Shown here: positions 1,626 through 54,196 of the stretch, piece after piece
Layout of the letters: each line of letters opens with the position of its first letter
How positions within the stretch are numbered: position 1 is the first letter of the stretch
Source: a candidate division FCPU426 bacterium
GTDB taxonomy: Bacteria > Oederibacteriota > Muellerivitia > Muellerivitales > Muellerivitaceae
Length of the DNA stretch: 64,000 bases
Direction of reading: 5' to 3'
Assembly: GCA_963771075.1 (NCBI GenBank)
Contig: CAVYSE010000011.1
Location: forward strand, 160,001-224,000
Program-made: the position numbers and the translations under genes
The notes under the pieces: generated by a model
The model's database searches: none
What the model was told of the DNA's origin: nothing
What the model saw: the letters and a program-made list of their open reading frames with translations, nothing else

Positions 1626-1639
1626 ATGACAAGGGCCAT
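1626..1639 (-). promoter_or_regulatory. Crp/Fnr-type box ATGAC-AAGG-GCCAT (1 mismatch), upstream of radical SAM gene
   Basis: TACAAT -10 on - strand at 1603-1598, 29.5 bp from box centre. Confidence 0.7.
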
Positions 1640-1778
1640 CTTTCCTGGCACCTGCACGATAATTCCGTTTATTTTATAACTTCCACACTGGAACTCAATC
1701 GATGTTTGAGGTTATATCTATTCCTGGGTCTCCTTTACTCAAATGAAGTTGTGTTTCAGGTATTGCCGAAATGCGATT

Positions 1779-1792
1779 ATGACACCTCTCAT
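1779..1792 (+). promoter_or_regulatory. Crp/Fnr-type box ATGAC-ACCT-CTCAT (1 mismatch), upstream of hemerythrin
   Basis: TTATGACACCTCTCATAA; TAATAT -10 at 1815-1820, 29.5 bp from centre. Confidence 0.75.
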
Positions 1793-1877
1793 AACCGGGG
1801 TTTGATTTCTTGAATAATATCAGTCGTGGGCAGGCGGTAGGCCACAAATGGATGGAATTTAAAATCTAAGGGGAAAA

Positions 1878-2288
1878 ATGAGTTTGATCGATTGGAAGGA
1901 CAATTACAGTGTTGAGATCGTTGAAATAGACCATCAACATCAGGGTTTTTTCCGACTGATCAACGGTCTTTATGACGCCCTGATCGAGGAAAAAGAAAAG
2001 GATTCTTTAGGGGCGATCATCCTTGAGTTGGAAGCCTACGCGAAAAATCACTTCAAAACCGAAGAAGACTACTTTATCGAATGGGATTTTCCCGGTGCGG
2101 AAAAACACCGGTTGGAGCATGAGACCTTTACTCGAAACTTGGCCCGGTTTAAAGCCGGGTTCGAGTCGGGTGTCCAAATCGGCATTTCGGTTCAGTTATT
2201 GAGTTTTCTCAGTGCCTGGTTGAAAAACCATATTTTGGTCAGCGACCATCAATACGCCGATTTTATAAAGCAAAAAGCCGTGAAATAA
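1878..2288 (+). CDS. Bacteriohemerythrin
   Basis: W...YSV...ID.QH, HF..EE, H..EH, WL.NHI..SD di-iron motifs; RBS AAGGGG. Confidence 0.9.
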   Translation: MSLIDWKDNYSVEIVEIDHQHQGFFRLINGLYDALIEEKEKDSLGAIILELEAYAKNHFKTEEDYFIEWDFPGAEKHRLEHETFTRNLARFKAGFESGVQIGISVQLLSFLSAWLKNHILVSDHQYADFIKQKAVK

Positions 2289-2361
2289 ACCGGACCATTT
2301 ATTTCACTGAATTTCCATTGATTCCAGCGCGTAAATCCTCGCCATCGGCTTTAATGTTTTT

Positions 2362-3036
2362 ATGAACAGTCCCTCTGAATCACCCCTTTTGAATGTCCTT
2401 TTCGAGAATGAGGATCTCATTGCCGTCGATAAACCCGTCGGGCAAACGGTAATCCCGGCGCGGAATCAAAAGGATATCCTTCCTCCCCTTGTGGAAATGG
2501 TCTCAAAAAAAATAGGAAAAAAAGCCAATGTGGTTCACCGGTTGGACCAAGACACCAGCGGAATCGTGGTATTCGGGAAGAACGCCCAAACCCATCGGGA
2601 ACTCTGCCTTCTCTGGGAAAAAAGAGAAGTCGTTAAGTTATATAAGGCCCTAGTTTGGGGAAAGGTTTCTTCCGGGGAAGGAATAATCGATCATCCTTTG
2701 CGACCTTTTGGTTCGGGCCGTATGGGGGTCGATCCAAACGGAAAGAAAAGTCAAACCCGATATCGGTTACTTCAAAGGGGGACAGGGTCTTCCTTATTGG
2801 AGGTGGAGCCCTGGACCGGGCGACGACATCAAATAAGGGTCCATTTTTATCACTTAGGGTTCCCTGTGATGGGGGATCCGCTTTACGGTCAGGAAAGGCC
2901 GGTGGGAGGTGTGTCCCGGCTTATGCTTCATGCCTATCAGTTGGTCATCCCCCTTCGGGGCCAGACATTGACGATCAATTGCGAGCCAGGAAAAGATTTT
3001 GTCAAAATCTTAAATGAAAACACAGAAATGAAATAA
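2362..3036 (+). CDS. RluA-family RNA pseudouridine synthase
   Basis: VDKP, HRLDQDTSG catalytic motif, TGRRHQIRVH, GDPLYG, LHA. Confidence 0.92.
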   Translation: MNSPSESPLLNVLFENEDLIAVDKPVGQTVIPARNQKDILPPLVEMVSKKIGKKANVVHRLDQDTSGIVVFGKNAQTHRELCLLWEKREVVKLYKALVWGKVSSGEGIIDHPLRPFGSGRMGVDPNGKKSQTRYRLLQRGTGSSLLEVEPWTGRRHQIRVHFYHLGFPVMGDPLYGQERPVGGVSRLMLHAYQLVIPLRGQTLTINCEPGKDFVKILNENTEMK

Positions 3037-3128
3037 GCCTCCCCTTTTTATAATCAACCCCTTTGTAATCGAAAACCCTTGGTCAAACATACAAGAAGAT
3101 CTGCGGATGAACTATAAAAAGGGCCGTT

Positions 3129-3142
3129 ATGACTTAAGTCAT
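3129..3142 (+). promoter_or_regulatory. Crp/Fnr-type box ATGAC-TTAA-GTCAT, upstream of ric operon
   Basis: Perfect palindrome; TACCCT at 3165-3170, 29.5 bp from centre. Confidence 0.8.
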
Positions 3143-3229
3143 GAATCTTTGTGAGGCGACCCCCTACCCTAAAGTGTGTAAGGATCAGAACCGGACGGTT
3201 TGGGAACAGTCCCATCCCTAGGAGAATGA

Positions 3230-3967
3230 ATGAAAATCAGTCCCGATTGGACGGTTCGGGAAGTCGCTTCGCAAATCCAAGCTTCCATTCCGCTTTTTGA
3301 ATCGCTTCATATTGACTATTGTTGCAATGGCCAACAAACATTGAAAGAGGCCTGTGTTACTTTGGAAATCCCCGTGGAAAAAGTCTTGGATTCGCTAGAG
3401 CGCATGGTGAACAAAACCCCCTCCAATCCAGATGCGCCCAACCCATGGGCTAAAAAAAGTATTCCGGAGCTTATTGACCATATCCTGGAAATCCATCACC
3501 CATTCACGCGAGTCCAGCTCAATCGATTGATGAAATTGTCCGAAAAGGTTTCGCGCCTACATGCGGTCCGCCATCCCGAATTGATCCAATTGAACGGTTT
3601 GTTGGTCAAAATGGCCGAGGAGTTGGAAAGCCACATGGTGAAGGAAGAAGAAGTGGTTTTCCCCTGCCTCCGGAAACTTTGGGATTCGAGGCGAAAGAGA
3701 AAAAAATTGGAAAATCCTTTTTTCCAAGGGGGGCAGGAAGATCCGGTCCATGTACTCGTCTGGGAACATGGAATGACAGGGGAGGAATGGCAAGAAATCC
3801 ACCGTTTAACCAAAGATTACACCACGCCCGCGGATGCTTGCGTGTCCTATCGGTCCCTGTACCAGGGGTTGAAAGAGCTGGAGGATGATTTGCACCGGCA
3901 CATTCACCTGGAAAATAACATCCTATTTTACCGTCTCCAGCAATTGGGACTTTTGGGCTCCCTTTGA
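3230..3967 (+). CDS. ric: Iron-sulfur cluster repair di-iron protein (Ric/YtfE/ScdA)
   Basis: IDYCC N-terminal ScdA_N motif, LIDHI..HH, HM.KEE, PADAC..YR.LY..L..LE.DLH.HIHLENNILF. Confidence 0.92.
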   Translation: MKISPDWTVREVASQIQASIPLFESLHIDYCCNGQQTLKEACVTLEIPVEKVLDSLERMVNKTPSNPDAPNPWAKKSIPELIDHILEIHHPFTRVQLNRLMKLSEKVSRLHAVRHPELIQLNGLLVKMAEELESHMVKEEEVVFPCLRKLWDSRRKRKKLENPFFQGGQEDPVHVLVWEHGMTGEEWQEIHRLTKDYTTPADACVSYRSLYQGLKELEDDLHRHIHLENNILFYRLQQLGLLGSL

Positions 3968-4007
3968 TTCATCCGAAGCGACAACTCAAGAAAGGCTGCT
4001 TTTTCAA

Positions 4008-4787
4008 ATGATGACCATGAATCAAATGGACCTAAGGGGGATTGCCCACGGCTGGGAGCAAAAAATCCTTTCCGCTTTTGATGGTTTGAACGAGGGACAA
4101 GCGTTGGAAATCCTCGTGGATTGGGACCCAACCCCACTACATTTCCTGTTATTGAAGGAAAGAACCAGGCTTTTCCGATGGGAAAACCGGGAAAAAAAAC
4201 CGGATCATTGGAAGATCCGCCTCCTGCGAGTGGCGCATGGATTGGGGGAAGCCCCGGCCTCGGAACCGCCGGTTTTGACTCCCCGGCCTAACATCAGCCC
4301 GCGACCCGCCTGGATTGACGATTTGAACCCTTCCTGTGGACTTTTTTTGGACATTCGACCCCTTACTGAGAAAGGGCTGGACCCCTTTCAAATGATTGTC
4401 CAATCGGCGAAAGAGTTAAAACCCGGCCAACACCTGCACTTGGTCCAAAATGAGCAGCCGGAGTCTTTTATTTGTGCCCTGGGTCGGTTAGGGTATGAGG
4501 GGTTTGCCGAAATGAAAGGCGGGGTTTGGAACGCCTATTTCCGAAAGGGTAAGATTCCGCCCACCGGCCAACCGGTAATGGAACTGGATGTGAGACGGTT
4601 GACGCCGCCCCTTCCACTATTGAAGGTGCTGGAATCCCTTCCCTTGATCTCATCGGAAGGCGTTTTGAAGGTATTCTTCCCAAATCGCCCGGATAGTTTG
4701 ATCGAGAAACTCCAGGCGCATGGTTTTGAGGTGAAGTGGGAAGCTTCCGAGGGTGGGGCGTTTGTACTTTGGATATGGAAAAAATAA
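4008..4787 (+). CDS. DUF2249-repeat (SirA/TusA-like) protein
   Basis: Three repeats of (L/M)D(L/I/V)R...P...I.....L..G; follows ric; start moved to ATG 4008. Confidence 0.75.
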   Translation: MMTMNQMDLRGIAHGWEQKILSAFDGLNEGQALEILVDWDPTPLHFLLLKERTRLFRWENREKKPDHWKIRLLRVAHGLGEAPASEPPVLTPRPNISPRPAWIDDLNPSCGLFLDIRPLTEKGLDPFQMIVQSAKELKPGQHLHLVQNEQPESFICALGRLGYEGFAEMKGGVWNAYFRKGKIPPTGQPVMELDVRRLTPPLPLLKVLESLPLISSEGVLKVFFPNRPDSLIEKLQAHGFEVKWEASEGGAFVLWIWKK

Positions 4788-4886
4788 TCCAAAACCAGCG
4801 AAAGCTGAGTACCGATGTATGCCGGCGTGAATCGACGGGCCATGAACGGTCCTTGGATTCATGAACAATGTTGATTGGGAGCGACG

Positions 4887-6326
4887 ATGACAGAACCGAT
4901 GATTATTCAGGGAGGAATGGGCGCCGGGGTTTCCAATTGGGTCTTGGCCCGCGCGGTTTCCCAGACAGGCCAGATGGGGGTGGTTTCCGGAACCGCTTTG
5001 GATTCGATTATGGTCCGCCGGTTGCAAACCGGCGATATGGATGGAGCCATGCGACGGGCCCTGGTCGCCTTTCCCGACCCTGCCGTGGCCAAGCGCATTT
5101 TGGACCGTTATTTCATTCCCGGCGGCAAAAAAGATCATGAGCCTTTTCGATTGATCCCCATGTTCACCCTTACTCCGCCGAAAGAACTGGTGGAACTCAA
5201 TGTGGCCGCCAATTTCGCGGAAGTTTGGCTCGCGAAGGAAGGGCACTCGGGCAAGGTCGGCATCAATTTCCTTGAAAAGATTCAAATGCCCCTCCTTTCC
5301 TGCATCTATGGGGCCCTGTTGGCGAACGTGGATTATGTCCTCGTGGGCGCGGGCATTCCCCGGGCCATTCCGGCGATCCTCGATAAGTTGTCCCAGCATG
5401 AGGATGCCTCCATGAAGATCTATGTCCAGGGTGCCTCCGCTGAGGAGGAAAGCATCATGACCTTTCGCCCCCGGGATATCCTGTCGGAGATAGGCGAGGC
5501 GCTCAAGCGGCCCCGGTTTCTGGCCATCATCGCCTCGGAGGTCTTGGCCCTAACGCTTGCCAAGAAGTCCACGGGCAAGGTGGACGGCTTCGTAGTGGAA
5601 GGCCCCACGGCCGGGGGGCATAACGCCCCGCCTCGCGGGCCCCTCCAGCTCAATGACAGGGGAGAACCGCTTTATGGGGTCAAGGATGAGGTGGACCTGC
5701 AGAAGATCAAGGCCATCGGCCTTCCCTTTTGGGTGGCGGGTTCCATGGCCGACCCGGCTAAGCTCAACGCGGCTTTGGAAGCCGGTGCGGCGGGCCTGCA
5801 GGTGGGGTCCGTGTTCGCTTATTGCGAGGAATCAGGCCTCGCCGACTGGATCAAAAAAAAGGTGATCGAGGGTTTGCGGGCGGGATGGGTGCATGTTTTT
5901 ACCGACCCCAAGGCCTCCCCAACGGGTTTTCCCTTCAAGGTGGTGAATGTCCCTGGGACCAATTCCGAATTAGGGGATTATCAAAAGCGAAAACGTATCT
6001 GCGACCTGGGATACTTGCGGAGCCTTTATAAGCGGAAAGACGGAACTCCGGGTTACCGTTGCGCCAGCGAACCCCACGAAGCCTATCTGCAAAAGCAGGG
6101 TGAAATGGCCAACACGGAGGGTCGCAAATGCCTTTGCAACGGTTTAATGTCCAATATCGACTTGTCCCAATCCCAGAAGGATGGGAGCGTAGAACGGGCG
6201 CTCGTTACTTCCGGTGACGATGTGGGCAGGATCCTGAATTTCCTCAAGGGCGGCAAGGAATCCTATTCGGCCATCGAGGTGGTCGAGTATCTCCTGGGTT
6301 CCCGGATTCCCGCGGCGGCGGTTTAA
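4887..6326 (+). CDS. Nitronate monooxygenase / 2-nitropropane dioxygenase family flavoprotein
   Basis: PMIIQGGMG, VVEGPTAGGH, GLQVGS.F, Cys-rich C-terminus CDLGYLR..CASEP..CLCNGL. Confidence 0.85.
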   Translation: MTEPMIIQGGMGAGVSNWVLARAVSQTGQMGVVSGTALDSIMVRRLQTGDMDGAMRRALVAFPDPAVAKRILDRYFIPGGKKDHEPFRLIPMFTLTPPKELVELNVAANFAEVWLAKEGHSGKVGINFLEKIQMPLLSCIYGALLANVDYVLVGAGIPRAIPAILDKLSQHEDASMKIYVQGASAEEESIMTFRPRDILSEIGEALKRPRFLAIIASEVLALTLAKKSTGKVDGFVVEGPTAGGHNAPPRGPLQLNDRGEPLYGVKDEVDLQKIKAIGLPFWVAGSMADPAKLNAALEAGAAGLQVGSVFAYCEESGLADWIKKKVIEGLRAGWVHVFTDPKASPTGFPFKVVNVPGTNSELGDYQKRKRICDLGYLRSLYKRKDGTPGYRCASEPHEAYLQKQGEMANTEGRKCLCNGLMSNIDLSQSQKDGSVERALVTSGDDVGRILNFLKGGKESYSAIEVVEYLLGSRIPAAAV

Positions 6327-6364: not shown

Positions 6365-6378
6365 ATGACAGGGGTCAT
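6365..6378 (+). promoter_or_regulatory. Crp/Fnr-type box ATGAC-AGGG-GTCAT, upstream of phosphoribosyltransferase
   Basis: Exact match; CATAAT at 6401-6406, 29.5 bp from centre. Confidence 0.8.
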
Positions 6379-6509: not shown

Positions 6510-7211
6510 ATGAAACTCAAATTAAAATCCAAGTTTCCCTTTCGGGACCGAGACCAAGCCGCCCGGATGCTTTGCGAGAAACTTTTCCATTATCGAGGGC
6601 TGAACCCGCTGGTCCTCGGCCTTTCTCCCGCGTCCGTGCCCATGGCCTGTCTCTTGGCCCGTTACCTGAAGGGTGAGGCGGATATTTTATTGGTCGAGAA
6701 GATTTATTCTCCCGAAAACCCCCATTTGGCGTTGGGAGTACTGGCGGAAGGCGGCGCTTTTACGCTCGCGCCCGGGGGAGGCCAAATGTGGGTTCCGCCC
6801 CATTTTCTGGAAGAAGAAATGCGCAAACTGTCCCACGGCCTTCAGGAACGCCGGAAATTATATACCCCCCAAAGGGCGCTCCTCTCCTGCGCGAACCGCG
6901 TCGTGATCCTGATCGACGATCTCGCCAAAACGGGGGTAAGCCTTTGGGCCGCCTATCGGGAGGTGGATGGCCGGCATCCCGCCCAGGTGGTGGTAACGGT
7001 CCCGGTGGCGACTCCCGCGGCCTTGGAACTGTTGCGACGGGAAACGGAAGAAGCCTTTGCCCTCTGGTCCGGCGATCAATGGTCTACCCCGTCGGAGATT
7101 TACGAAATCAACGTGAAGATCAGCGAAGAGGATGCCGCGGAATTCCTGCATCCCGTCGATCCGGACCTGTTGGTTTCCCGTGGACGAGCCCACTCGATTC
7201 CCGCCAACTAA
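6510..7211 (+). CDS. Phosphoribosyltransferase family protein
   Basis: FRDR..A..L, VILIDDLAKTG PRPP-binding-like motif, VPVA. Confidence 0.8.
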   Translation: MKLKLKSKFPFRDRDQAARMLCEKLFHYRGLNPLVLGLSPASVPMACLLARYLKGEADILLVEKIYSPENPHLALGVLAEGGAFTLAPGGGQMWVPPHFLEEEMRKLSHGLQERRKLYTPQRALLSCANRVVILIDDLAKTGVSLWAAYREVDGRHPAQVVVTVPVATPAALELLRRETEEAFALWSGDQWSTPSEIYEINVKISEEDAAEFLHPVDPDLLVSRGRAHSIPAN

Positions 7212-7261
7212 ACTCCTTGTGCCTATTTGGAAGCGCGCCCCTATAATGAGCCTTTCTTAAA

Positions 7262-8026
7262 TTGATAGGAGTGGTATCCCTTTTGTCCCCCTTCGTTTGG
7301 ATGCTCCTGAGCGTGATCGTGGTAAGCCTCCTATCCCTGATCGGGATATCCCTTTTCGCGCTCAGCCATAAAACTTTCCATGCCCTTGTCTTCGTCCTGG
7401 TGGCCTTGGCCGTGGGGGCCCTCTTTGGGGACGCCTTTATCCATCTTTTGCCCGAGGCCATGAGGGAATCCTCCCAAGCCCTGGACGCCTCCCTGACGGT
7501 CATCGGCGGCATCCTCCTCTTTTTCATTCTCGAGAATTTCCTCCACTGGCGCCATCAGCACTCGGACGAGCATGAGGAAATCCAACCTTACGGTTATTTA
7601 AACCTGACGGCGGACATGGCCCACAATTTTATCGATGGCCTCTTGATCGGGGGTTCCTACTTGGCGGGCATGAAGCTGGGAATGGCCTCAGCCCTGGCGG
7701 TGCTATTGCACGAGCTACCACACGAATTCAGCAATTTCGGAATCCTGGTGAAATCGGGGTTCTCCAAACAAAAGGCGATCTTTTTGAATTTCCTCACCGC
7801 CCTTACGGCCATCCTGGGCGGGCTGGCGGCCTGGTGGCTTGGGGGATCGGTGGCGGGATTTCTACGGGTCCTTTTGCCCCTGACCGCGGGGAGTTTTATC
7901 TATATCGCAGGAAGTGACCTGGTGCCCCAACTCCACAAGGACGTTAAAAGCGCCCGGGCCCTGGTCCAGTTCGTCGCCATCCTGACGGGCGTGGGGCTGA
8001 TGCTCCTTATCAAGTTGTTGGAATAA
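7262..8026 (+). CDS. ZIP family zinc/metal transporter
   Basis: HLLPEA, His-rich loop, HNFIDG, HELPHE, multiple TM segments. Confidence 0.9.
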   Translation: MIGVVSLLSPFVWMLLSVIVVSLLSLIGISLFALSHKTFHALVFVLVALAVGALFGDAFIHLLPEAMRESSQALDASLTVIGGILLFFILENFLHWRHQHSDEHEEIQPYGYLNLTADMAHNFIDGLLIGGSYLAGMKLGMASALAVLLHELPHEFSNFGILVKSGFSKQKAIFLNFLTALTAILGGLAAWWLGGSVAGFLRVLLPLTAGSFIYIAGSDLVPQLHKDVKSARALVQFVAILTGVGLMLLIKLLE

Positions 8027-17798: not shown

Positions 17799-17812
17799 AT
17801 GACAAGTGTCAT
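17799..17812. promoter_or_regulatory. Crp/Fnr-type box TTATGAC-AAGT-GTCATAA between divergent VIT1 and kinase genes
   Basis: Exact extended palindrome. Confidence 0.8.
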
Positions 17813-17900: not shown

Positions 17901-19247
17901 ATGAATAATGATTTTTCCGCCCAACGCTTACAGTGGTTCATTCATCTTCGATGGGCGGCGGTTTTCGGGGGAGGGCTGATCGTGGGAGTCGGGACTCGTG
18001 TGGGTCCCCTCCATTTTTCCCTTCTGACTCTGCTGGGCTCTCTCGCTTTTCTGGGTTTGTTGAACGCCGGATATCAATTTCTTTGGAGCCAATGGTGCAA
18101 AGATAACGCCAACCCGGAAAATCTGGAAAACCGAATCCGCAAGTTATTTCACATTCAAATGGTATTGGATTTCGCCGTTTTGACCTTCATGCTGGCGGTC
18201 AGTGGTGGGATTCAAAATCCTTTTTTTTTATTTTACCTTTTCCATTTGGCCATCAGCACGATCCTTTTTACCGTTTGGGAAAGCTTGGGATACGCGGTCG
18301 TAGCGGCCTTACTGCCCTGGCTCATCTTTTTGATGCAATCTCAATTACCCCAAATGAATTTGGAAGGAAATTCGGGTTTCGGGCTTTCCAGCGGAGGGGA
18401 ACTTTGGCCGGTTCTGACCGGGTATACGGTCACCGTCGCTGGCTTGTGGTTTTTCCTCACCCGGCTTGCTTCCGATCTTAGATCGAAGCAGAGATCTTTG
18501 GAAGAAATGGGCCAAAAGCTGTCCACGGCCAATGAAAATCTCAAAGAAGTGGACGTTTACAAGAATCAATTCCTTCGGCAAGTGGTTTTTCAATTGAAAG
18601 GCCCGGCAATCGATATGGATTTTGATCTTTCCGCGATCGAGCAATCCATGCCGAAGGCGACCGAAAAAACTGAAACGGCGATTAAAACGGCAAAAAAAAG
18701 AGTTTGGTCTTTGCTGGAACTCATTGATGATTTGGTTTGGTTATCGAAAACAAACGTGGAAGAAATGCCGTTCAAGAAAGAAAAAGTGGATGTTTATGAA
18801 GTGCTTTTGAAAAGGGTGCAACATCATGAGGCGGAAGCCCGACAAAAGGGTTTGGAACTCCAACTACATGGAGACCCTCAAATTCACCTAGAAGCGGATC
18901 GGGAGGCTCTGGACCGTGTGGTAGAAAATCTTTTATCCAATTCTCTGAAATATAGCGAGGAAGGGAAAAGCCCTATTTTGGTTGAGTTCAAACGGAATGG
19001 AGAATGGATGGTCCTGACCGTGGAGGATAAGGGGATCGGGATCCCGGCCAAACAGCAAAAACGCCTGTTCGAGCAATTTTTCCGGGCTACCAACGCTAAA
19101 AGCCGGGAAAAATTTGGCACTGGACTGGGATTGTCCATCGTTCGGGAAATCATTCAATGGCATGGCGGGAAGGTGTCGGTGGAAAGCGAACCCAAGAAGG
19201 GAACCCGCATTGAGACCTGGTGGCCCCTATTGCCGGATAAAAATTAA
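17901..19247 (+). CDS. Membrane sensor histidine kinase-like protein lacking the phospho-His
   Basis: TM region; H-box reads FLRQVVFQLKGP; intact N (NLLSNSLKY), G1 (DKGIGI), G2 (GTGLGL) boxes. Confidence 0.8.
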   Translation: MNNDFSAQRLQWFIHLRWAAVFGGGLIVGVGTRVGPLHFSLLTLLGSLAFLGLLNAGYQFLWSQWCKDNANPENLENRIRKLFHIQMVLDFAVLTFMLAVSGGIQNPFFLFYLFHLAISTILFTVWESLGYAVVAALLPWLIFLMQSQLPQMNLEGNSGFGLSSGGELWPVLTGYTVTVAGLWFFLTRLASDLRSKQRSLEEMGQKLSTANENLKEVDVYKNQFLRQVVFQLKGPAIDMDFDLSAIEQSMPKATEKTETAIKTAKKRVWSLLELIDDLVWLSKTNVEEMPFKKEKVDVYEVLLKRVQHHEAEARQKGLELQLHGDPQIHLEADREALDRVVENLLSNSLKYSEEGKSPILVEFKRNGEWMVLTVEDKGIGIPAKQQKRLFEQFFRATNAKSREKFGTGLGLSIVREIIQWHGGKVSVESEPKKGTRIETWWPLLPDKN

Positions 19248-19268: not shown

Positions 19269-19751
19269 CTAATGTTCGATGGCCTTAACTTCGATAGGTT
19301 GGGAAAGATGGGCGGTTAAATATCGGGTGGAAATCAAGCCCAATTTTGTCCCGTTCGCACCGAAGGCGAAAAGCTGGCAACGTCCCCCCTTCGCCGGGCT
19401 GAATTCCACGGTGGCATTGGCCTTGGCAGTCGGAGTCTCACGGGTCGCGAACTGTCCCAACTTCATGTTTTCCAAAATCAACCGGAACCCTTGAAGGTCC
19501 TTGAGTGGATATATTTCCAGATCTTGTTGGGCAAGAAATTGCCGAGCTTCAAGGCAAAAGTTCCTCGAGAAGAGCCAAAGACTGTCCCATTCAGTGACTT
19601 TTCCTTCTTCTTCCAGGGATTGAGAAATGAAGATGTCTTCGATGTCTTCGTGCAAAAGACGCGAGGCCACCGAAAGGATTCCGGTCAATCGTTCCATTCC
19701 TTGAAAGTCTAAACCCATGAATTGCGCATACTCCATAAATGTTTCACGCAT
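19269..19751 (-). CDS. Hypothetical protein
   Basis: 160-aa ORF, RBS-like GGAAGGA, no recognised motif. Confidence 0.6.
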   Translation of the reverse strand: MRETFMEYAQFMGLDFQGMERLTGILSVASRLLHEDIEDIFISQSLEEEGKVTEWDSLWLFSRNFCLEARQFLAQQDLEIYPLKDLQGFRLILENMKLGQFATRETPTAKANATVEFSPAKGGRCQLFAFGANGTKLGLISTRYLTAHLSQPIEVKAIEH

Positions 19752-19814: not shown

Positions 19815-19828
19815 ATGACCCTTGTCAT
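19815..19828. promoter_or_regulatory. Crp/Fnr-type box ATGAC-CCTT-GTCAT
   Basis: Exact match in the divergent region between the hypothetical gene and acs. Confidence 0.75.
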
Positions 19829-20074: not shown

Positions 20075-20088
20075 ATGACCAACGTCAT
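20075..20088 (+). promoter_or_regulatory. Crp/Fnr-type box ATGAC-CAAC-GTCAT upstream of acs
   Basis: Exact match about 65 bp before acs ATG. Confidence 0.75.
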
Positions 20089-20152: not shown

Positions 20153-22135
20153 ATGGCACCCGAAAAGCAATCCATCACTTCTTTGCAGAAGGATTCCGCA
20201 GTGACATTCCCGCCTCCGGCCTCGGTGGCCTCCAAGGCATTTATCGGATCCTTCCAAAAGTACCAGGAAATGTATGACCGCTCCGTGAAGGATTCCCACA
20301 AGTTTTGGCTTGAACAAGCCACGAATGAACTGGTTTGGTTCAAGAAACCCACGAAAACACTGGAGTGGACTTGGGACACCTCCAAAAGGAAAATTCAGCA
20401 TTCCTGGTTTTCGGATGGCGAGTTGAATTTATCGGTGAACTGTTTGGACCGTCACCTAGCCAAGAACGGAAATAAGATCGCTATCCTTTGGCAGGGCGAA
20501 AAGGATGAGGAAGTCCGTAAAATCACCTATTCTCAATTGCATGAGATGGTTTGTCGGTTCGCCAACGTGCTGCTTGCTAAGGGGGTCAAGAAAGGGGATC
20601 GGATCTGTGTTTATATGCCGATGATCCCCGAGGCGGCGGTGGCCTTGCTCGCTTGCGCCCGAATCGGTGCCATCCACTCCTTCGTTTTCGGCGGTTTTAG
20701 CGCGGAGGCGTTGAAAACCCGCATTCAGGATTCCCAAAATGTGTTGGCCATCACCACGGACGTGAGCTACCGATCTGGAAAAGCAATCGGATTGAAGAAT
20801 ATTCTTGATGAGGCCCTCAAGGAATGCCCTACCATCAAGAACGTCATTGTCTACAAGAGGGGTGACGGAAAGGTCAACATGCAGGCCGGCCGGGACAGCT
20901 GGTGGGATGAGGAGACCCAAAAGGCCAGTCCCAAGCATGAGGCCCAGCCGATGAACGCGGAAGACCCGCTTTTTATCCTGTATACCTCTGGATCCACTGG
21001 AAAACCGAAAGGGGTCCTTCACACGACCGGCGGTTATATCTTACACGCCGCCCTGAGCCACCGCCTCATTTTCGACTGCCATCCCGAGGACACCTATTGG
21101 TGCACTGCCGACATCGGTTGGGTCACGGGCCACAGTTACATCGTCTATGGCCCCCTGGCCAACGGCGTCACATCGATCATGTTTGAGGGAGTACCCACCT
21201 ACCCAGATTCTGGTAGGTTCTGGCAAGTGATCGCCAAACATAAAGTCACCATCTTTTATACCGCGCCCACCGCGATCCGTTCCCTGATGCGAGAAGGGGA
21301 AGAATGGCCGAAAAAGCACGACTTGAGCTCCTTGCGCATCCTGGGCTCGGTCGGTGAACCAATCAATCCCGAGGCATGGTTGTGGTATCACAGGAACATT
21401 GGCCAAAGCCGCTGTCCTATCGTCGATACCTGGTGGCAGACGGAAACGGGTGGTATTTTGATCACCCCACTTCCGGGTGCCCATACTTTAAAACCTGGGA
21501 GCGCCTCTCTTCCCTTTTTCGGGGTGGAGCCCATCGTAGTGGATAATGACGGGAAAGAATGCGCCAGAAACGAAGGCGGAAAACTGTGCATTAAGAAGCC
21601 CTGGCCGGGCATGGCCCGCACCATGTGGGGGGATCACGAACGTTTCATCGACACCTATTTCACCGCTTTCCCCAACCTTTATTACACAGGGGACGGTTGC
21701 CGCGTCGATCAGGACGGAGATTACTGGCTCATGGGCCGGGTGGATGATGTGGTGAACATCTCTGGACACCGTATCGGGACGGCGGAAGTGGAAAGCGCGC
21801 TTGTTTCCCATCCCAAGGTTTCGGAAGCGGCGGTGGTGGGCTATCCCCACGACATCAAAGGATCGGCCCTTTACGCTTACGTGACCGTGAAGGAGGGCGT
21901 GACGCCGTCAGATGAGCTGAAGAAAGAACTGGTTCAGCATGTGCGCAAGGAAATCGGTCCCATTGCCCAACCGGACAAGATCCAGTTCGCGGAGGCGATG
22001 CCCAAGACCCGCAGCGGCAAAATCATGCGCCGGATCTTGAGGAAAATAGCAGAGAATGAAACGGGTAATCTGGGCGATATTTCCACCCTGGCCGACCCGT
22101 CCGTCGTGGAAAGGCTGATCCAAGGAAAGCAATAA
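20153..22135 (+). CDS. acs: AMP-forming acetyl-CoA synthetase
   Basis: [31 protein letters not shown] with acetylation-site Lys; RBS GGGAGG before ATG 20153. Confidence 0.97.
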
Positions 22136-22211: not shown

Positions 22212-23246
22212 CTACTTGAACTTGGCCATGTCCAGATGGGACTGCACAAACTGGGTGATCATCGCGACCTTGCCCGGGTCCTGGTGGGTCAAGAGGGGTT
22301 CCAAACCGTCCAGTTGCTTGGCGGTATGGAAAGTATCGGTGGAAACCAATAAAAGCGGTATATTGCGCTGGTTGGCCAAGGAAAGCACATCCGGCGAGGG
22401 AAGGATATTGTTCGTTAGGATCACTCCGGAGGTGCCTCCCTCCAGGGCGGCCAGGATCATATCGCTCCGGTCCCCGCTGGTAACGACCAATTTTTTATCC
22501 TTATTGAAGAGGGTAAGCCTCCTGGCGCTGTCCACGGACATGGCTCCAATAATGATGTGGCCCACCTCATTGCCCAATCCTCCTTCTCCGGCGAGGGTTT
22601 TCGAGAAAAGCACCTCGGACAGGTAGGCCATAGTGAAATGGTTCAGTTCGGGTTTCAAAGGCAAGATCCCCAGGATGGGAATACCCAACTGGTTGATCTG
22701 GGGCAAATAGGTCGTTTTGAAATCCTCCAGGTCGTGCACCTTGTTGAGGATGACGCCCTTAAAACGAACGTCCTGGATCGGCAGGCATTTTTTGATGCAG
22801 ACCAGGTCGTCCGCGATGGAACCCTCCGAACCGCTCACCACGAGGATCAACTCCCCGCCGAGGGCTTTGGCGACGGAGACGGCGTCCAGGTGCACGGACA
22901 TTCCGTAATTCAAGTGCATGCCGCCTTCCACGAAAAGTAGTTCCTTCCCGGCCCCGGCGTGGGTGGCCACCTCGCGCAGTTTTTCAGTGGTGGTCGCCGC
23001 GTCGTATTTGTATTTCAACTTGGCGTGCTCGAAGCCGATGGAGATGTCTTCCGGGTTTTCATGAAGGTTCCAGAGGTGGGTCAGCAGGGCGGAATCGTAG
23101 TCCCAAAGGCGTTTTTTGTGATAGATCAACCGGTCGCCGAAGGGTTTCATGTAACCGGACTGTTGTCCTAGCGCGGCGGCAAGGCCGATGATCACTCCCG
23201 TTTTGCCGGAACTTTTGCTGCTTGATCCAATGACGAGTGTTTTCAT
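22212..23246 (-). CDS. Phosphotransacetylase N-terminal-like protein (BioD/AAA_26 + DRTGG), no PTA catalytic domain
   Basis: SSGKT P-loop, YMKP.G, VEG, VILNK, TSGDRSD. Confidence 0.85.
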   Translation of the reverse strand: MKTLVIGSSSKSSGKTGVIIGLAAALGQQSGYMKPFGDRLIYHKKRLWDYDSALLTHLWNLHENPEDISIGFEHAKLKYKYDAATTTEKLREVATHAGAGKELLFVEGGMHLNYGMSVHLDAVSVAKALGGELILVVSGSEGSIADDLVCIKKCLPIQDVRFKGVILNKVHDLEDFKTTYLPQINQLGIPILGILPLKPELNHFTMAYLSEVLFSKTLAGEGGLGNEVGHIIIGAMSVDSARRLTLFNKDKKLVVTSGDRSDMILAALEGGTSGVILTNNILPSPDVLSLANQRNIPLLLVSTDTFHTAKQLDGLEPLLTHQDPGKVAMITQFVQSHLDMAKFK

Positions 23247-25372: not shown

Positions 25373-25379
25373 CGGTTCC

Positions 25380-30065: not shown

Positions 30066-30090
30066 TCGAGCCTTAAGGGAACATTTTTCC

Positions 30091-30155: not shown

Positions 30156-30209
30156 GACGGTTGATCGGATGGGCTTGTGCGTATTCATCTAATAAAGGAG
30201 GCAGGAACA

Positions 30210-30809
30210 ATGACGACTCAAAGTGAACCCATGAAGCTTGCGGACACTACTGCTAATCCGGCACCCTTGGGCTTGTTGGGCTTCGGGATGACGACCGTGT
30301 TGTTAAACTTCCACAACGCGGGGTTTTATGCTCTGGATTCGATGGTCTTGGCTATGGGCATTTTTTACGGCGGCTTAGCCCAGGTGATCGCAGGGGTCCA
30401 AGAATGGAAAAAGAACAACACCTTCGGCGCCACGGCCTTTACTTCCTACGGGATGTTCTGGCTGACCTTGGTGGCTCTGCTGACCCTGCCCAAGCTGACG
30501 TTCCTGGGTTGGGCTGGCCCGGATGCCAACTCCTTCTCGGTTTACCTGGCTCTCTGGGGTATCTTTACATTGGTTATGTTCGTGGGAACTTTAAAACTCA
30601 ACCGCGCTCTACAGGTTGTTTTCGGATCGCTCGTTATTCTTTTCTTCATGCTTTCCGCCGGCAAGGCAATGGGAAGCGAGGATATCATCCACATCGCCGG
30701 GTATGAGGGTATATTCTGCGGGGCATCGGCGATCTATACCGGGCTGGCCCAGGTCCTCAACGAGGTTTACGGAAAAGTGGTTTGGCCGCTGGGACCCGTG
30801 AAGAAATAG
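30210..30809 (+). CDS. satP: Acetate uptake channel SatP (GPR1/FUN34/YaaH)
   Basis: ANPAPLGLLGF, FYGGLAQ, NTFGATAFTSYG.FW; RBS AAGGAGG. Confidence 0.93.
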   Translation: MTTQSEPMKLADTTANPAPLGLLGFGMTTVLLNFHNAGFYALDSMVLAMGIFYGGLAQVIAGVQEWKKNNTFGATAFTSYGMFWLTLVALLTLPKLTFLGWAGPDANSFSVYLALWGIFTLVMFVGTLKLNRALQVVFGSLVILFFMLSAGKAMGSEDIIHIAGYEGIFCGASAIYTGLAQVLNEVYGKVVWPLGPVKK

Positions 30810-30971: not shown

Positions 30972-30985
30972 ATGACTGAAATCAT
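30972..30985 (+). promoter_or_regulatory. Crp/Fnr-type box ATGAC-TGAA-ATCAT (1 mismatch), upstream of the Crp/Fnr gene
   Basis: Near-consensus site; possible autoregulation. Confidence 0.6.
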
Positions 30986-31104: not shown

Positions 31105-31803
31105 ATGCTTCATTCACAAACATCGCCCGGCAAACAACCTAACATGGTTGGCCGCTCCTTTATTTCCTCCCTGGAAGTTTTCAAAAAGATCCCATCTTCC
31201 CACCTGCTTGAACTCGAAAAGAAAATGGTTGAGCGCAAGTATGCCAAGGGTGAATCCCTTTTCCTCGAAGGCGACCCGGCAGAATACGTCTGGTTTGTCA
31301 AGGAAGGCCATGTCAAGGCCGTTATCCATACCGCCAATGGGCGGGATTTGACCCTCTGTATGGTGGGGGCGAATAGTCTTTTCGGGACCTGCTGCTGTTT
31401 CGGAGGGGGAGAATATCCCTGTCACAGCGTGGCGGAAACTGAAACCACAGTCGTGGCCCTTCCCATGCAGGAGTTCATCAATCTTTTGGATAAATACCCG
31501 GAAGTTGGTAAGTCCATCGTTTTCCACCTTTCCAAACGCTTACGCCAGGCCAAAGATATGCAGACCTTTGACCAGGAAAGCGTGGAAAAACGGATTCTTC
31601 ACCTTCTCGTGAACCTTGTGGCTGAATTCGGCAACACCATCCCCTTGACCCGGCGTGAGATCGCGGAAATGACTGGAACAACGGTGGAAACTTGTATCCG
31701 AACCTTTTCCAATCTTGAAAAGGAAGGGTTGGTTTCCAGCGCTAGGGGAAAGATTACAGTAAAAAGCGTACAAGATTTGATCGATCGGCAGGAGGAACTT
31801 TAA
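31105..31803 (+). CDS. Crp/Fnr family transcriptional regulator, Cys-rich
   Basis: cNMP-like domain (Y.KGE.LF.EGD, G.VK), LCM..GTCCC..PCH, HTH LTRREIAEMTGTTVETCIR. Confidence 0.93.
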   Translation: MLHSQTSPGKQPNMVGRSFISSLEVFKKIPSSHLLELEKKMVERKYAKGESLFLEGDPAEYVWFVKEGHVKAVIHTANGRDLTLCMVGANSLFGTCCCFGGGEYPCHSVAETETTVVALPMQEFINLLDKYPEVGKSIVFHLSKRLRQAKDMQTFDQESVEKRILHLLVNLVAEFGNTIPLTRREIAEMTGTTVETCIRTFSNLEKEGLVSSARGKITVKSVQDLIDRQEEL

Positions 31804-50427: not shown

Positions 50428-52574
50428 CTATATCTTCCATTTGAGGCTGGCCCGCAGGGCCAGGGGCTCCACCGGGTGGAACATGTTGTCATACACTCCT
50501 TGCGATGGTTCCCCCGGCAACCGGCTTATGTCCCAATAGGTGATGTCGTCGGATTGGGCATTGAAGAGGTTGAAAATCGCGATCGCCAGGGTAGCGTCGC
50601 CATGGGTGTATTCGGCCCCAGCGTTGACCAGCGACGTGTCATGGGAATAATGGTCGCCTGTCTCGTCCGATCCCAGGAACCGGGGCCCAAAATAGCGCAG
50701 GCGTATCTCGAATTTGAAGTCTCGGGGAGCCTTCACGCAAAGCCCGGCGCTGGCCACATCGGCCACCGCCTCAGGGACGTTGGTGCCGTAGGTGGCGGTA
50801 TCGAAGTAATGGGCCTGGCTGGTGGAAAGGTCCGCGTCCAGGATCAGCCAATCGAGAGGCCGCCAGTCGTTGGCCCATTCGATCCCGATGCGGCGGGTTG
50901 CTCCGGAGGCGTCTGTGGTGCCGTCATCCCCGTTAAAAACCAGTTCCGAATCCAGGTCCAGCATCCAGAGGGAAACGGTGCTCCTCAAGTTGGGGATGGA
51001 CTCGCACCTTATGCCGAACTCGGCGCCCCGGGACTGCACCAAGGGCGGGTAGAGGGCCGCGTCGTTTGCCTGTGTCACGGGCCCTCCGTTTTGTGTGGTC
51101 ACGTCCCAGTTCTTAACCGTGCCCCGCGCGTCGTTGGAATGGTAGTCGAAGCCGCCGCTTAAGTAGAACTCGGTCTCGCCCCAGGGGCCGAAAACCAGGC
51201 TTCCCTTGGGGCTCAAGAGCGCCCCCGTGGCCAGGCCTGAGTTGCCCGGCACGTTGGCATTGATGTTGTACCGTACCGCGTCGCCCCGCAGCCCTAAGGT
51301 GGACCGGAACCAATCGCTCCAATGGGTGAGGTTGGAAACGTAAAGGCCGCCACTGAGCAAATTCACCTGGTCGTCCGAATCCGTGGAGAACCGGACCCGG
51401 TTCTCGGTGTTGTAAAGCCCGATATGGAGGAAGTCATTGCGGATTTGGAACCCGGCGGTCGTGCGGGAATCGGCGCCAAATAGTTCGTGGCTCCAAGCCT
51501 GAACCACTTGTCCGCCCAGGATGTTGCGATCATCATATTGCTCGAACTGGTCGCCCTGTACCGGGTTGTTGTAGTAGAGGGAAAAGTTGCTGAAAAGGTC
51601 GAGATAGCTCCTGACGTAATAGGCCTGCACGGTGGTGCCCGCCGAGGGGCTGTTGTCCCGCCATTCACCCGAGAGGCTCAGACGGTAGCTTTTCCCTCCA
51701 TCAGTGGGGCTGAAGCTCCCAAACCGGTCGATCTTCCCTTCCTCGACGGCCCTTGCCGGGATCTGGTTGGTAGCATTCCAATCACCCTCGTAACCCAGGG
51801 CGGTCAAATCCCATCCCTTTTGGGCGTCCCCCGAACCGTAACGAAGAAGGCCGTTGTATTTACGGTAGTTTTCCGGAACATCCCAGGGCCCGTCCATATG
51901 CTCGGTTTCCATGGCGTAAACTAGGTTGTCAGACCCGAAGCTGGAGCTGTCCGCCGCCACGGCGCGCTGGTATCCGAAATATCCCGAGGTGACGTCGGCC
52001 AAGCCGTGGGGGAGACTGCGGAAGGTTCGAATCTGCGCAGCGCCCGCCGAGGAAAAATCCCCATCCTCAGCGTAATAGGGGCCCTTCTGGTAATTTACAC
52101 TCTCGACCAGTTCAGGGATCATGAAATTAAGGTCCATGTAACCCTGCCCATGGGCCTGGGTGGGTAGGTTGGCTGGCATCCCGTCGATCCAGGTGGCGAA
52201 GTCGGTGCCGTGGTCCAGGTTGAAACCGCGCAGGAAGTACTGGTTGGCCTTGCCGTCGCCCGAGTGCTGGGTGACGATCATGCCCGGCACGTTTTCCATC
52301 ATCTCGCCGGGCCGAAGGAGCGGGCGATTGGCCAGGTCGTCCTGCCCCACGAAGCCCTCGCTGGCGGTGTCGGCCGTGCCGACGAGGTTCAAGGATTTGC
52401 CGATCACCAAAACCTCGGGCAATTGCACGACAGGTTGGGTCGAAACCGGAGTGGCATCAGGGCTGGGGGTGGGAGTAAGGGTTTGGGAGCATGCCGGCCA
52501 ACCTAGGCCTAAAAAAAGAGAATCAACGATCCTTTCGCAAATAAAGTGAAATCACGCGTCGCTTGAAAACCCAT
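50428..52574 (-). CDS. TonB-dependent receptor (probable Ni uptake), frameshift in T7 tract of the signal peptide
   Basis: PG..VTQHSG.GKANQYFLRGFNLDHGTDF, KGPY, NLFN; ATG 52574 joins the main ORF if T7 at 52511-52517 is T8. Confidence 0.85.
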
Positions 52575-52588
52575 CGCGCTTCTCTTTG

Positions 52589-52615
52589 GTATTAAAATTA
52601 TTAAAAACGTAATAC
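52589..52615. promoter_or_regulatory. NikR operator-like palindrome GTATTA-N15-TAATAC
   Basis: Perfect half-sites with AT-rich spacer, just upstream of receptor ATG, within the nikR cluster. Confidence 0.8.
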
Positions 52616-52631
52616 TACTTAAGCAAAAAAA

Positions 52632-53672
52632 TTAAGCCTCGGTCTTCTCGAAACCTTGGAACCGGTAGATCAGTATCGATAAAAGCCACCCCACTACAAA
52701 AACCCCTACGACCACGAAACCAAAGTTGGTGAGGTCGTCGTTCAAGGACTCGATGAGGCCAAAAGCCCCGCCATGAAGGTTGAGCTTGTCGGCGATGAGC
52801 CCCAGGGCCTCCAGGGAGCCGATCAGGAGCGCCACCAGCACCGAGAGGGAAGTGAGGGTCAGGTTGTACCAGAGCTTCCTCAAGGGGTGCACGAAGGCCC
52901 AGCCATAGACCCCCGTCATGATGACGCTGTCGGACGTATCCACCAGCGACATGCCCGCGGTGAACAGGACGGGAAATATCATGGTGCTCCCGAAGGAGAA
53001 CCCCTGGGCGGCCTGGGAAGCCGCGATGCCCAAAAGGCCGATTTCGGTGGCCGTGTCAAACCCCAGCCCGAACAGGAAACCCACCAGGTACATGTGGCGG
53101 CTTTCGGAGACGCTGTTCAGGAAGGGCTTGAAGATGCGCGACAGGAAACCCCGGTCCCAGAGCAGGCCGTCGAGTTCCTCCGCGTCGCTGGACTCGCCCC
53201 TTTGCTCCCGCCGGAAGGCCCGCCAGATGCTCTTGAGCACGAAAAGGTTGGCCAGCCCGATGGCGACCAGGAAGAAGGCAGAGACCGCCGTGCCCAAGAC
53301 GCCCCCGATGGCCCGAAAATGTTCCAGGCGGTCATGGGAGAGCCCGATGGCGGCGGCTAGGGCCGCCGAGGCCAGGAGGACAATGGTCGAATGCCCCAGC
53401 GAAAAGAAAAAACCGACCGAGATGGGCCGCCGACCCTCCTGCATGATCTTGCGCACGACGTTGTCGATGGCCGCGATGTGGTCCGCGTCCACCGCGTGGC
53501 GAAGGCCGAAAAGGTAGGCCAGGAAGGCCGTGCCCAATAAAGCCGGGCTGTGGGCGAAGGCCGTGAAGGCCCAGGCCCAGGCCCCCAAGTTGAAGACCCC
53601 GAGCCAAAAATAGAGCGTAGTGGTCTTGGCCCGGGTGTCCTGGGGTTGGTCATCGAATAAGTTGAAAAACAT
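52632..53672 (-). CDS. HoxN/HupN/NixA-family nickel/cobalt permease (NiCoT)
   Basis: GLRHAVDADHIAAID, FSLGHS, GFLFGLGFDTATE. Confidence 0.93.
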   Translation of the reverse strand: MFFNLFDDQPQDTRAKTTTLYFWLGVFNLGAWAWAFTAFAHSPALLGTAFLAYLFGLRHAVDADHIAAIDNVVRKIMQEGRRPISVGFFFSLGHSTIVLLASAALAAAIGLSHDRLEHFRAIGGVLGTAVSAFFLVAIGLANLFVLKSIWRAFRREQRGESSDAEELDGLLWDRGFLSRIFKPFLNSVSESRHMYLVGFLFGLGFDTATEIGLLGIAASQAAQGFSFGSTMIFPVLFTAGMSLVDTSDSVIMTGVYGWAFVHPLRKLWYNLTLTSLSVLVALLIGSLEALGLIADKLNLHGGAFGLIESLNDDLTNFGFVVVGVFVVGWLLSILIYRFQGFEKTEA

Positions 53673-53709
53673 GTTTTGTTTCCTGTTGGGGGATCCTTGG
53701 GAGAGGAAC

Positions 53710-54126
53710 TTATCCCAATTCCTTCCCGGTGGTTCCCAGGGATAGGGTGGCGTGAAGCACGCCCTTTTCCTGGCGCATGTGATCGAACAGGTGGCGGATG
53801 TCGTCCGCTTGGCCCCTGATCATGATCATTTCCGCGCATAGCTTTTCATCCAGGTGCACATGGGTGGAAGCCAGTACCTGGGCCGGGTGATGGTGTTGCA
53901 TCTCGATCAGCTTTTCGGACAGCTGTCGCTTATGGTGGTCGTAAAGCAGGGACACGGTGCCCAAGGCCTCGCCTTTGCCTTCCCATTCCTGGTCGACTTG
54001 ATGGCCCCGGATCAGATCCCGGATGAATTCGGAACGGTTGGCGTAGTTCTTTTCCTTGATCAGGCGCTCAAATTTTTGGGCCAGGGATTTTTCGATGGAA
54101 AAGCTAAAACGGTGTAGATTCGCCAT
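53710..54126 (-). CDS. nikR: Nickel-responsive regulator NikR
   Basis: RFSFS..NRSEFIRDLIR ribbon-helix-helix; YDHH, QH, HVHL..C.E; RBS GGAGG. Confidence 0.95.
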   Translation of the reverse strand: MANLHRFSFSIEKSLAQKFERLIKEKNYANRSEFIRDLIRGHQVDQEWEGKGEALGTVSLLYDHHKRQLSEKLIEMQHHHPAQVLASTHVHLDEKLCAEMIMIRGQADDIRHLFDHMRQEKGVLHATLSLGTTGKELG

Positions 54127-54182
54127 GGAATGCCTCCGAAGAACTCGCACTCAAGATTAAGGGTTGAGCCTTTCGGATGAGC

Positions 54183-54196
54183 ATGACCGTAGTCAT
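54183..54196 (-). promoter_or_regulatory. Crp/Fnr-type box ATGAC-CGTA-GTCAT upstream of nikR
   Basis: Exact match; TAATCT on - strand at 54159-54154. Confidence 0.7.

Follow-up and report, generated by a model that had tools for sequence, protein, structure and literature searches.

An ATGAC-N4-GTCAT box that likely marks a low-oxygen-type Crp/Fnr regulon in a candidate division FCPU426 bacterium

RESULTS AND DISCUSSION

Boxes in the window and across the genome

We analyzed a 64,000-nucleotide stretch of DNA from a candidate division FCPU426 bacterium (assembly GCA_963771075.1, contig CAVYSE010000011.1, positions 160,001 to 224,000), referred to here as the window. Within it, copies of the inverted repeat ATGAC-N4-GTCAT (the box) precede a diverse set of genes, including acs, ric, nikR, and the gene for a Crp/Fnr-type protein that is the probable reader of the box (Table 1). 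A first-pass annotation had listed eight exact boxes and three with one mismatch (at 1626, 1779, and 30972), and all of them were recovered; the labels given to the boxed genes also agreed with profile and family matches. The eight exact copies compare with a mean of 0.02 and a largest value of 1 in shuffled sequence, and the 12 copies with at most one mismatch compare with a mean of 1.10 and a largest value of 4. The 12th copy, a one-mismatch box at 38591 that had been overlooked, lies in coding DNA, in a hybrid kinase gene. By the gene calls made for this analysis (a simple gene caller; 3725 genes in the genome, 81% coding), the other 11 are all intergenic, in agreement with the claim that they lie upstream of gene starts.

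Across the genome, the exact box occurs 26 times. Twelve copies are intergenic, where 0.44 would be expected, and 8 of these 12 sit in the window, which makes up 1.5% of the genome; control spacers of 0 to 12 bases gave 0 to 2 intergenic copies each. The first-pass annotation had raised the question of whether the motif is equally frequent in coding DNA; the 14 coding copies exceed the 3.4 expected. The coding excess arises because one site is repeated in eight near-identical IS110 transposase copies (C3:100231-101253 and seven more), which supply 8 of the 14. These IS110 boxes are probably incidental, since none of the eight is followed by a -10 element of good quality. With flanks, the consensus extends to YATGAC-N4-GTCATR, and both flanks and spacers vary from site to site.

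Table 1. Boxes and associated genes of the window, with predicted targets and -10 elements
Feature	Position	Strand	Predicted target or content	Remark
Box, 1 mismatch	1626..1639		radical SAM gene	-10 TACAAT 1598-1603, minus strand
Box, 1 mismatch	1779..1792		bacteriohemerythrin	-10 TAATAT 1815-1820
Exact box	3129..3142		ric-DUF2249-nitronate monooxygenase	weak -10 3165-3170; spacer TTAA
Exact box	6365..6378		phosphoribosyltransferase (PRTase)-ZIP	-10 CATAAT 6401-6406
Exact box	17799..17812		RegB-like kinase	-10 about 17836-17841
Exact box	19815..19828		hypothetical gene 19269-19751	weak -10 19786-19791, minus strand
Exact box	20075..20088		acs	weak -10 20111-20116
Exact box	27396..27409		CoA-transferase-GNAT, acetate-CoA ligase, DRTGG operon	-10 TATAAT 27369-27374
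Exact box	28696..28709		porin-satP	-10 TAAAAT 28732-28737
Box, 1 mismatch	30972..30985		before Crp/Fnr gene	neither direction has a -10 at the class II distance
Exact box	54183..54196		nikR-nixA-TonB receptor	borderline -10 54156-54161, minus strand
Crp/Fnr regulator	31105..31803	+	232 amino acids	PF00027 and PF13545 over cut-off
Membrane kinase-like protein	17901..19247	+	RegB-like membrane domain	ATP-binding domain intact
Radical SAM/SPASM protein	403..1503	-	TIGR04053	related to AhbD haem b synthase
Bacteriohemerythrin	1878..2288	+
ric operon	3230..6326	+	ric (Fe-S repair), DUF2249 protein, nitronate monooxygenase-like gene
PRTase genes	6510..8026	+	phosphoribosyltransferase-like gene, ZIP transporter
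Hypothetical protein	19269..19751	-		no family match
acs	20153..22135	+	acetyl-CoA synthetase
CoA-transferase operon	22212..27300	-	CoA-transferase, GNAT, ADP-forming acetate-CoA ligase, DRTGG protein	GNAT in separate frame
Porin-satP	28833..30809	+	BBP2 porin, acetate transporter SatP
nikR operon	50428..54126	-	nikR, nixA-type nickel transporter, TonB-dependent receptor

Promoter geometry and gene direction

The window and some 20 relatives, whose fetched regions were picked for boxes and not for promoters, gave 149 distinct box-gene pairs (box score of at least 15 bits, 25 to 140 bases before the start). In 59 of these pairs, a TAnnnT hexamer starts 23 bases past the end of the box, the runner-up offset having 10 pairs. 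Leaving out this genome, the same offset holds 53 of 133 pairs, against about 1 per other offset. An approximate -10 matrix scored at least 3 at offsets 22 to 24 in 89 of the 149 pairs, whereas control windows averaged 6.6 such pairs and never exceeded 15. When the hexamer is taken as -12 to -7, the box is centered at -41.5, which is the usual class II position of FNR sites (PMC7349173; papers are cited here by accession). As judged from this spacing, the box is likely a site at the class II position of a Crp/Fnr activator.

In the window, a -10 element at this distance accompanies seven boxes in one direction and is weak for another three; the crp-upstream box lacks one. The direction of the targets of boxes 1626, 1779, 17799, 19815, and 27396 follows from the position of these elements. 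Box 17799 had been assigned to both VIT1 and the kinase gene, and box 27396 to both the CoA-transferase-GNAT operon and a deacetylase; the -10 elements face the kinase gene and the CoA-transferase operon (TATAAT), so that half of each assignment stands. VIT1 and the deacetylase, having no -10 on their side, were rejected as direct class II targets. A generic promoter scan (1 site versus 2.1 in shuffles) was uninformative.

The regulator that reads the box

The protein encoded at 31105-31803 has both the cyclic nucleotide-binding beta-roll and the Crp-type helix-turn-helix domain of Crp/Fnr proteins, and its predicted model gives a template modeling (TM) score of about 0.8 to GlxR, mycobacterial CRP, and Aliivibrio fischeri FNR. 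Its recognition helix is V194-E-T-C-I-R199, coded at 31684-31701. A first helix residue (position 180) other than Arg, with Glu181 kept, has been linked to an FNR-like TGA core and a T/A-TGA half-site (PMC1274295), and under this rule the V-E-x-x-x-R helix fits such a half-site. A box of at least 11 bits lies within 330 bases before all 15 orthologues of the gene (at least 68% identity, this genome included), and before 14 of the 15 at a 12-bit cut-off, versus 1 of 17 paralogues; the split between orthologues and paralogues comes from a quick tree and is used descriptively. As an independent check, we used the same helix pattern to fetch 60 loci of other phyla, mostly Nitrospirota and Nitrospinota. 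Exact boxes number 12 in these loci, versus 0 to 4 at six other spacers, and the 38 ATGAY-N4-RTCAT sites give 29 -10 matches at offset 23.

We also counted copies in 40 relatives (labeled G001 onward, this genome being G000), with a 7-base spacer in the same codon phase as the control for the 4-base spacer; a reversed-pattern control was dropped as too lenient, the reversed words being rarer. In the 21 family genomes where the Crp/Fnr clade of the window has a homologue, we counted 244 copies versus 99 for the control; the 3 family genomes without the clade had 14 versus 12, and the 16 genomes outside the family 36 versus 30. These are tallies and not a test, since the relatives share kinship. 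Both copies in G019 (97% complete), the sole near-complete genome without the clade, are inside long open reading frames. Relatives with only paralogue-type proteins (G006, G022, and G009) have a box excess too, and the present genome has a paralogue on contig C21 whose helix, V-E-T-S-I-R, could read the same sites.

Taken together, the -41.5 geometry, the boxes before crp orthologues, and the co-occurrence with the clade uphold the proposal of a Crp/Fnr-type regulon with this box. On these comparisons we hold it very probable that the 31105-31803 protein, or the C21 paralogue with the same type of helix, binds the box, and we put high confidence in the prediction that binding activates transcription. 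Autoregulation of the crp gene is likely, and it is not uniform across relatives: the -10 element that goes with the crp-upstream box faces crp in G004, G005, G007, G012, G020, and G021 and faces a divergent acyl-CoA ligase/GNAT gene in G001, G002, G003, and G018.

Composition of the regulon

To count conservation, we used sets of orthologues chosen by protein search and not by box. The box precedes 16 of 20 orthologues of the kinase-like gene (17901-19247) and 13 of 18 haem radical SAM genes; these are the conserved targets. For ric the count was 10 of 30 loci, with one locus entered twice. For acs it was 4 of 24 genes (one of the 4 weak; 4 more genes had no upstream DNA), and for nixA 3 of 9 loci, each of the three from this genus. 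Acetate and nickel genes are local recruits to the regulon and not its core. With these counts, we rejected acetate and nickel as the core regulon, and the acetate and nickel arms proposed earlier fall away as conserved parts.

In the box-selected regions, the PRTase gene was boxed in 8 of 11 genomes, a second hemerythrin family in 7 of 11, YceI in 7 of 10, zinc-dependent alcohol dehydrogenase in 5 of 5, an AAA_33 protein in 4 of 4, and the type of hypothetical gene found at 19269-19751 in 5 of 5. Two SDR families and a cytochrome c also recurred, and boxed targets in relatives further include c-type cytochromes, phosphoenolpyruvate synthase, and P-type ATPases. Single boxed cases included bd oxidase, phosphoenolpyruvate carboxykinase, HSP20, nitroreductase, and the nitric oxide (NO) reductase qNor, and the porin-satP genes were found, among the fetched regions, in this genome only. 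Outside the window, this genome has exact boxes before an acyl-CoA dehydrogenase/electron transfer flavoprotein operon and a flavin adenine dinucleotide-linked oxidase gene, as well as three weaker boxes between divergent Hox-type and group 3b-type [NiFe]-hydrogenase operons (C28:372001-381358). Matching hydrogenase loci in relatives were boxed in 5 of 5 checked, and the boxed hydrogenases offer a rationale for the link to nickel.

Of 15 family genomes, 14 carry genes of the haem-copper oxidase family, and these organisms therefore likely meet oxygen. The boxed set as a whole resembles an FNR/FixK-type low-oxygen regulon, and the regulon is likely of this type and not an NO-acetate-nickel one. 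The first-pass annotation had not recognized the target set as one described before; with relatives included, the set resembles an ordinary regulon of the FNR/FixK type. Its picture of one regulator coupling Ric, hemerythrin, radical SAM, VIT1, acetate, and nickel genes is correct as to the kind of regulon and misplaced in emphasis; VIT1 drops out for lack of a -10 element, and the acetate and nickel links are not conserved. Two unusual features described below, the cysteine-lined pocket of the regulator and the His-less RegB-like kinase, had been overlooked.

Three further features of the window were noted. The CoA-transferase and GNAT parts (25377-27300, minus strand) form a single 631-amino-acid protein in G014 and two frames here, with the switch near 25894-25922; the gene may be split or frameshifted, or the assembly may be wrong at this point. 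A GC-rich hairpin region (116-403) follows the radical SAM gene; its best upstream box-like site reaches 1.3 bits, and control by the Crp/Fnr regulator is not supported by the box matrix. GC content is 57 to 61% over 46000-64000 and 51 to 53% elsewhere in the window, and nikR-nixA falls in the GC-richer part.

A kinase-like target

Among the targets, box conservation is highest for the kinase-like gene. The first 200 residues of its product match only RegB-family models (E values of 1.6e-9 and 1.1e-6), far below the family cut-offs, and they also match PilS-like membrane domains. A RegB-like motif, GGIQNPF, lies at 18204-18224, and GGxxNP is kept in 20 of 20 orthologues. With the RegB reference residues of the quinone motif taken from PMC3000548, 34 database homologues have the Asn in 34 cases, the Arg of the first transmembrane segment (RegB Arg31) in 32, the Phe of GGxxNPF (RegB Phe112, mostly Leu in the homologues) in 2, and Gln38 in none, the Gln position being assigned by spacing. 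Phe230 aligns with the phospho-acceptor His of the ordinary kinases of this genome; only 3 of 20 orthologues and 2 of the 34 database homologues have this His. We consider the protein probably a pseudokinase, comparable to DivL, which is named as one in PMC12471899.

The kinase-like gene turned up in 19 of the 21 clade-bearing family genomes and in 0 of the 3 others, and at most of its loci a crp gene is no more than a few genes away. Two of the three His-bearing orthologues (L208 in G013 and L209 in G010) are the most divergent of the set, and both lack a box. In G013, a receiver gene flanks the kinase gene on one side and, on the other, a Crp gene that lacks the cysteines described below, possibly an older arrangement. 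No RegA-type partner was seen near the kinase-like gene. The C21 paralogue lies at C21:58256-62905 amid two receiver proteins, a PAS kinase, and a sigma-54 activator; a cassette of this type adjoins the His-less kinase in several relatives and may be its signaling partner.

A cysteine-lined effector pocket

Four cysteines of the regulator, Cys85, Cys96, Cys97, and Cys106 (31357-31422), are invariant in 122 of 122 aligned sequences, that is, the query, the best 120 of 245 matches, and the paralogue, which duplicates one match. Cys98 is present in 91 of the 122, Cys197 of the recognition helix in 83, and Ile198 in 121. Aligned to GlxR, the four cysteines fall in or around the cAMP phosphate-binding cassette, and the cAMP-binding Glu and Arg of GlxR correspond to Thr95 and Tyr104, positions that are never Glu or Arg in the 122 sequences. 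In the model, which was built without cofactor, residues 96-101 have a predicted local distance difference test score below 50. The full set of four cysteines occurs in 8 of the 124 short proteins among the best 150 representatives, and Nitrospirota relatives and some paralogues lack them. Distant Crp/Fnr proteins show other cysteine-rich pockets, F-G-x-[LF]-C-R ... Y-P-C-[TS]-A in P0175, P0193, P0202, P0204, P0221, P0279, and P0303 and F-C-C-[LI]-P in P0173, P0181, P0195, and P0216, and these are candidates for further metal-sensing subfamilies.

The cassette Glu and Arg, the R-E-x-x-x-R helix, and the TGTGA box of a cAMP receptor are all absent, the helix here starting with Val. No cysteine precedes residue 85, where the three N-terminal cysteines of proteobacterial FNR would stand (NF008365 scores 44.6 bits versus a cut-off of 228), and none follows residue 197, where a Bacillus-type C-terminal cluster would need them. 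A 2026 review of eleven structures places the known iron-sulfur (Fe-S) clusters at the N terminus in Gram-negative FNR or the C terminus in Gram-positive FNR, and describes the Crp/Fnr cavity as holding a ligand or salt bridges (PMC12937710). For the present regulator, we put the chance that its cofactor is an Fe-S cluster held by the four pocket cysteines at about even, perhaps a shade better; the alternatives are haem, zinc, or disulfide chemistry in the pocket. The signal is probably oxygen or redox state and not NO.

Proposed mechanism and alternatives

The explanation we favor, with somewhat better than even confidence, is that the boxes are class II activator sites of the 31105-31803 protein, which would act as a low-oxygen switch through an Fe-S cluster in a cAMP-type pocket. 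When oxygen falls, the holo dimer would bind the box at -41.5 and recruit RNA polymerase. The set switched on would comprise oxygen-independent haem synthesis, oxygen-binding and Fe-S repair proteins, high-affinity oxidases, and alcohol and acyl-CoA turnover, along with two [NiFe]-hydrogenase operons and nickel supply in this genus. Oxygen would destroy the cluster and so switch the set off.

Several observations weigh against this explanation. In this genome no class II -10 element goes with the crp-upstream box, and acs and ric are atypical anaerobic targets. The box is enriched near cysteine-less Nitrospirota relatives, and G009 (85% complete) has a box excess (18 versus 5) with only cysteine-poor forms turning up; the box thus does not require the pocket cysteines. 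G025 has a four-cysteine homologue and no excess (2 versus 2), and four clade-bearing family genomes show little or none (G008, 5/7; G013, 5/5; G023, 9/12; G010, 4/1). In G017 (82% complete), where no clade member was found, two AT-rich copies look intergenic among the 4 of 7 copies inspected. The invariance of the cysteines in 122 sequences is partly kinship, because the sequences are close (at least 56% identity), and the adjacent pair C96-C97 is unusual for two ligands of one cluster.

An unlikely alternative keeps the same regulator and sites and changes the sensing, to haem, zinc, another metal, or disulfides, or to control by the His-less RegB-like kinase reading the quinone pool. C96 may lie near the position of the CooA haem ligand; four invariant cysteines suit a cluster better than a single haem ligand. 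FixK2 has a redox-active cysteine, Cys183, in its DNA-binding domain (PMC12937710), and Cys197 of the recognition helix here is reminiscent of it. Control by the kinase is suggested by its being the most conserved target, close to crp and tied to clade-bearing genomes, although RegB Gln38 is not kept. The kinase could not phosphorylate the regulator in the usual way, because the phospho-His is absent in 17 of 20 orthologues and Crp/Fnr proteins have no receiver domain.

Rather less probable is an HcpR/DNR-like NO regulon that also controls acetate and nickel genes. In its favor, hemerythrins, ric, and a nitronate monooxygenase-like gene are among the targets, the HcpR1 box TTGAC-N4-GTCAA is the nearest in print, qNor is boxed with ATGAC in G023, and Fe-S regulators such as FNR react with NO as well (PMC4601167). 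Yet in this genome qNor (C1:28428-30757) is preceded by GTGACTTAAGTTAT and a second ric gene by GTGACTTAAGTCAC, the latter shared with a divergent Crp gene whose helix is R-E-V-V-S-R (the pair at C26:49816-51319); the box in both is GTGAC-TTAA-GT(C/T)A(C/T). In 6 of the 7 family genomes read, qNor has a TGAC-TTAA-GT(C/T)A-like box in front of it, and a TTAA spacer occurs in only 3 of the 149 ATGAC boxes, two of which are the window ric box and that of qNor in G023. Because its TTAA spacer matches the NO-type box, the window ric site (3129) may be read by both Crps. As judged from these boxes, the second Crp with qNor and the second ric likely forms a separate NO regulon conserved in the family; NO stress, which had been proposed as an arm of the ATGAC regulon, would mostly be handled there. 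The hcp family (PF03063) was not found in this genome and was found in 2 of 15 family genomes, and most of the conserved targets belong to respiration or fermentation. In another family of the phylum, box-like sites do stand before hcp genes (L212 in G034 and L213 in G027), where the Crp helix is TTIET[AT]IR and the pocket cysteines are absent.

It is very unlikely that the box is read by a DosR/NarL-type response regulator. The PRTase, HSP20, P-type ATPase, and AAA_33 targets resemble members of the DosR regulon. The printed DosR motif TTSGGGACTWWAGTCCCSAA has the same GAC-N4-GTC core (PMC2275270), but DevR/DosR needs tandem boxes (PMC3177182), whereas those here are mostly single at -41.5. 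The outer bases also differ from GGGAC-N4-GTCCC, the two LuxR-type genes of the genome lie on C17 and C3, away from boxes, and the box tracks crp orthologues and helix type across phyla. Chance or a repeated mobile sequence is scarcely credible: 8 of the 26 genome copies do lie in IS110 transposase genes and the 4-base spacer is favored in coding DNA (99 control copies in 21 genomes), but there are 12 intergenic copies versus 0.44 expected, flanks and spacers vary, the -10 spacing is fixed, and the box is conserved before orthologues.

Significance and comparison with known systems

The helix V-E-T-[CS]-I-R is predicted to read TATGAY-N4-RTCATA throughout this uncultured family and in Nitrospirota-type genomes, a rule that extends regulon prediction to cases in which FNR and CRP matrices do not work. 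A cAMP-pocket cluster, if true, would be a separate route to oxygen sensing, and a His-less quinone-motif kinase as the best-kept target suggests signaling without phosphotransfer. It is a doubtful proposition that both hold jointly, namely, a third Crp/Fnr Fe-S architecture (C85, C96, C97, and C106 in the effector pocket) and phosphotransfer-free quinone-pool feedback from the His-less RegB-like target. The box also suggests a lineage that likely alternates respiration with the metabolism of H2, alcohol, and acetate. Our literature search returned no paper with the exact motif or the four-cysteine pocket; RegPrecise, figures, and supplementary tables lay outside that search and may hold the motif.

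Among the printed boxes we found, the nearest is that of HcpR1 of Geobacter, Desulfuromonas, Desulfotalea, and cyanobacteria, wyTTGACnnnnGTCAArw (PMC1274295, PMC545781). HcpR1 likewise belongs to the Crp/Fnr family, has a TGAC-N4-GTCA core and a non-Arg residue at helix position 180, and keeps Glu181. The outer base differs, A/T here (ATGAC) versus T/A in HcpR1 (TTGAC), one base per half-site: the first half-site position is A in 297 of 298 half-sites, a count partly due to the construction of the matrix. Unlike HcpR1, the system here has no hcp, broad respiratory and fermentative targets, and four pocket cysteines. The earlier statement that the box differs from the CRP/HcpR and FNR boxes holds for TGTGA and TTGAT but had passed over this close relative.

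Other systems share some traits. FixK2 of Bradyrhizobium is a microoxic activator with a cysteine in its DNA-binding domain (Cys183, versus Cys197 here), but it has no cluster ligands and the outer box bases differ. Bacillus subtilis Fnr is a Crp/Fnr oxygen sensor with a [4Fe-4S] cluster placed differently from that of Escherichia coli FNR; its cluster is C-terminal, whereas the candidate ligands here are in the N-terminal cavity, which in the B. subtilis Fnr model is filled by salt bridges (PMC12937710). The kinase-like protein resembles RegB/PrrB/ActS in the match of its membrane domain to RegB-family models, in GGxxNP and the first-transmembrane-segment Arg, and in an intact ATP-binding domain; it departs from them in the mostly missing phospho-His, the loss of Gln38, and the mostly Leu position of the Phe, and DivL offers the pseudokinase comparison.

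FNR of E. coli and A. fischeri shares the fold, the V-E-T-x-x-R helix, the -41.5 position, low-oxygen-type targets, and four conserved cysteines. The cysteines here lie in the cyclic nucleotide pocket, versus Cys20, Cys23, Cys29, and Cys122 of the N-terminal loop system in FNR; Ile replaces the Ser of ExxSR, and the box is ATGAC-N4-GTCAT instead of TTGAT-N4-ATCAA. The regulon is likely of a familiar kind, that of an FNR-style class II activator of low-oxygen genes.

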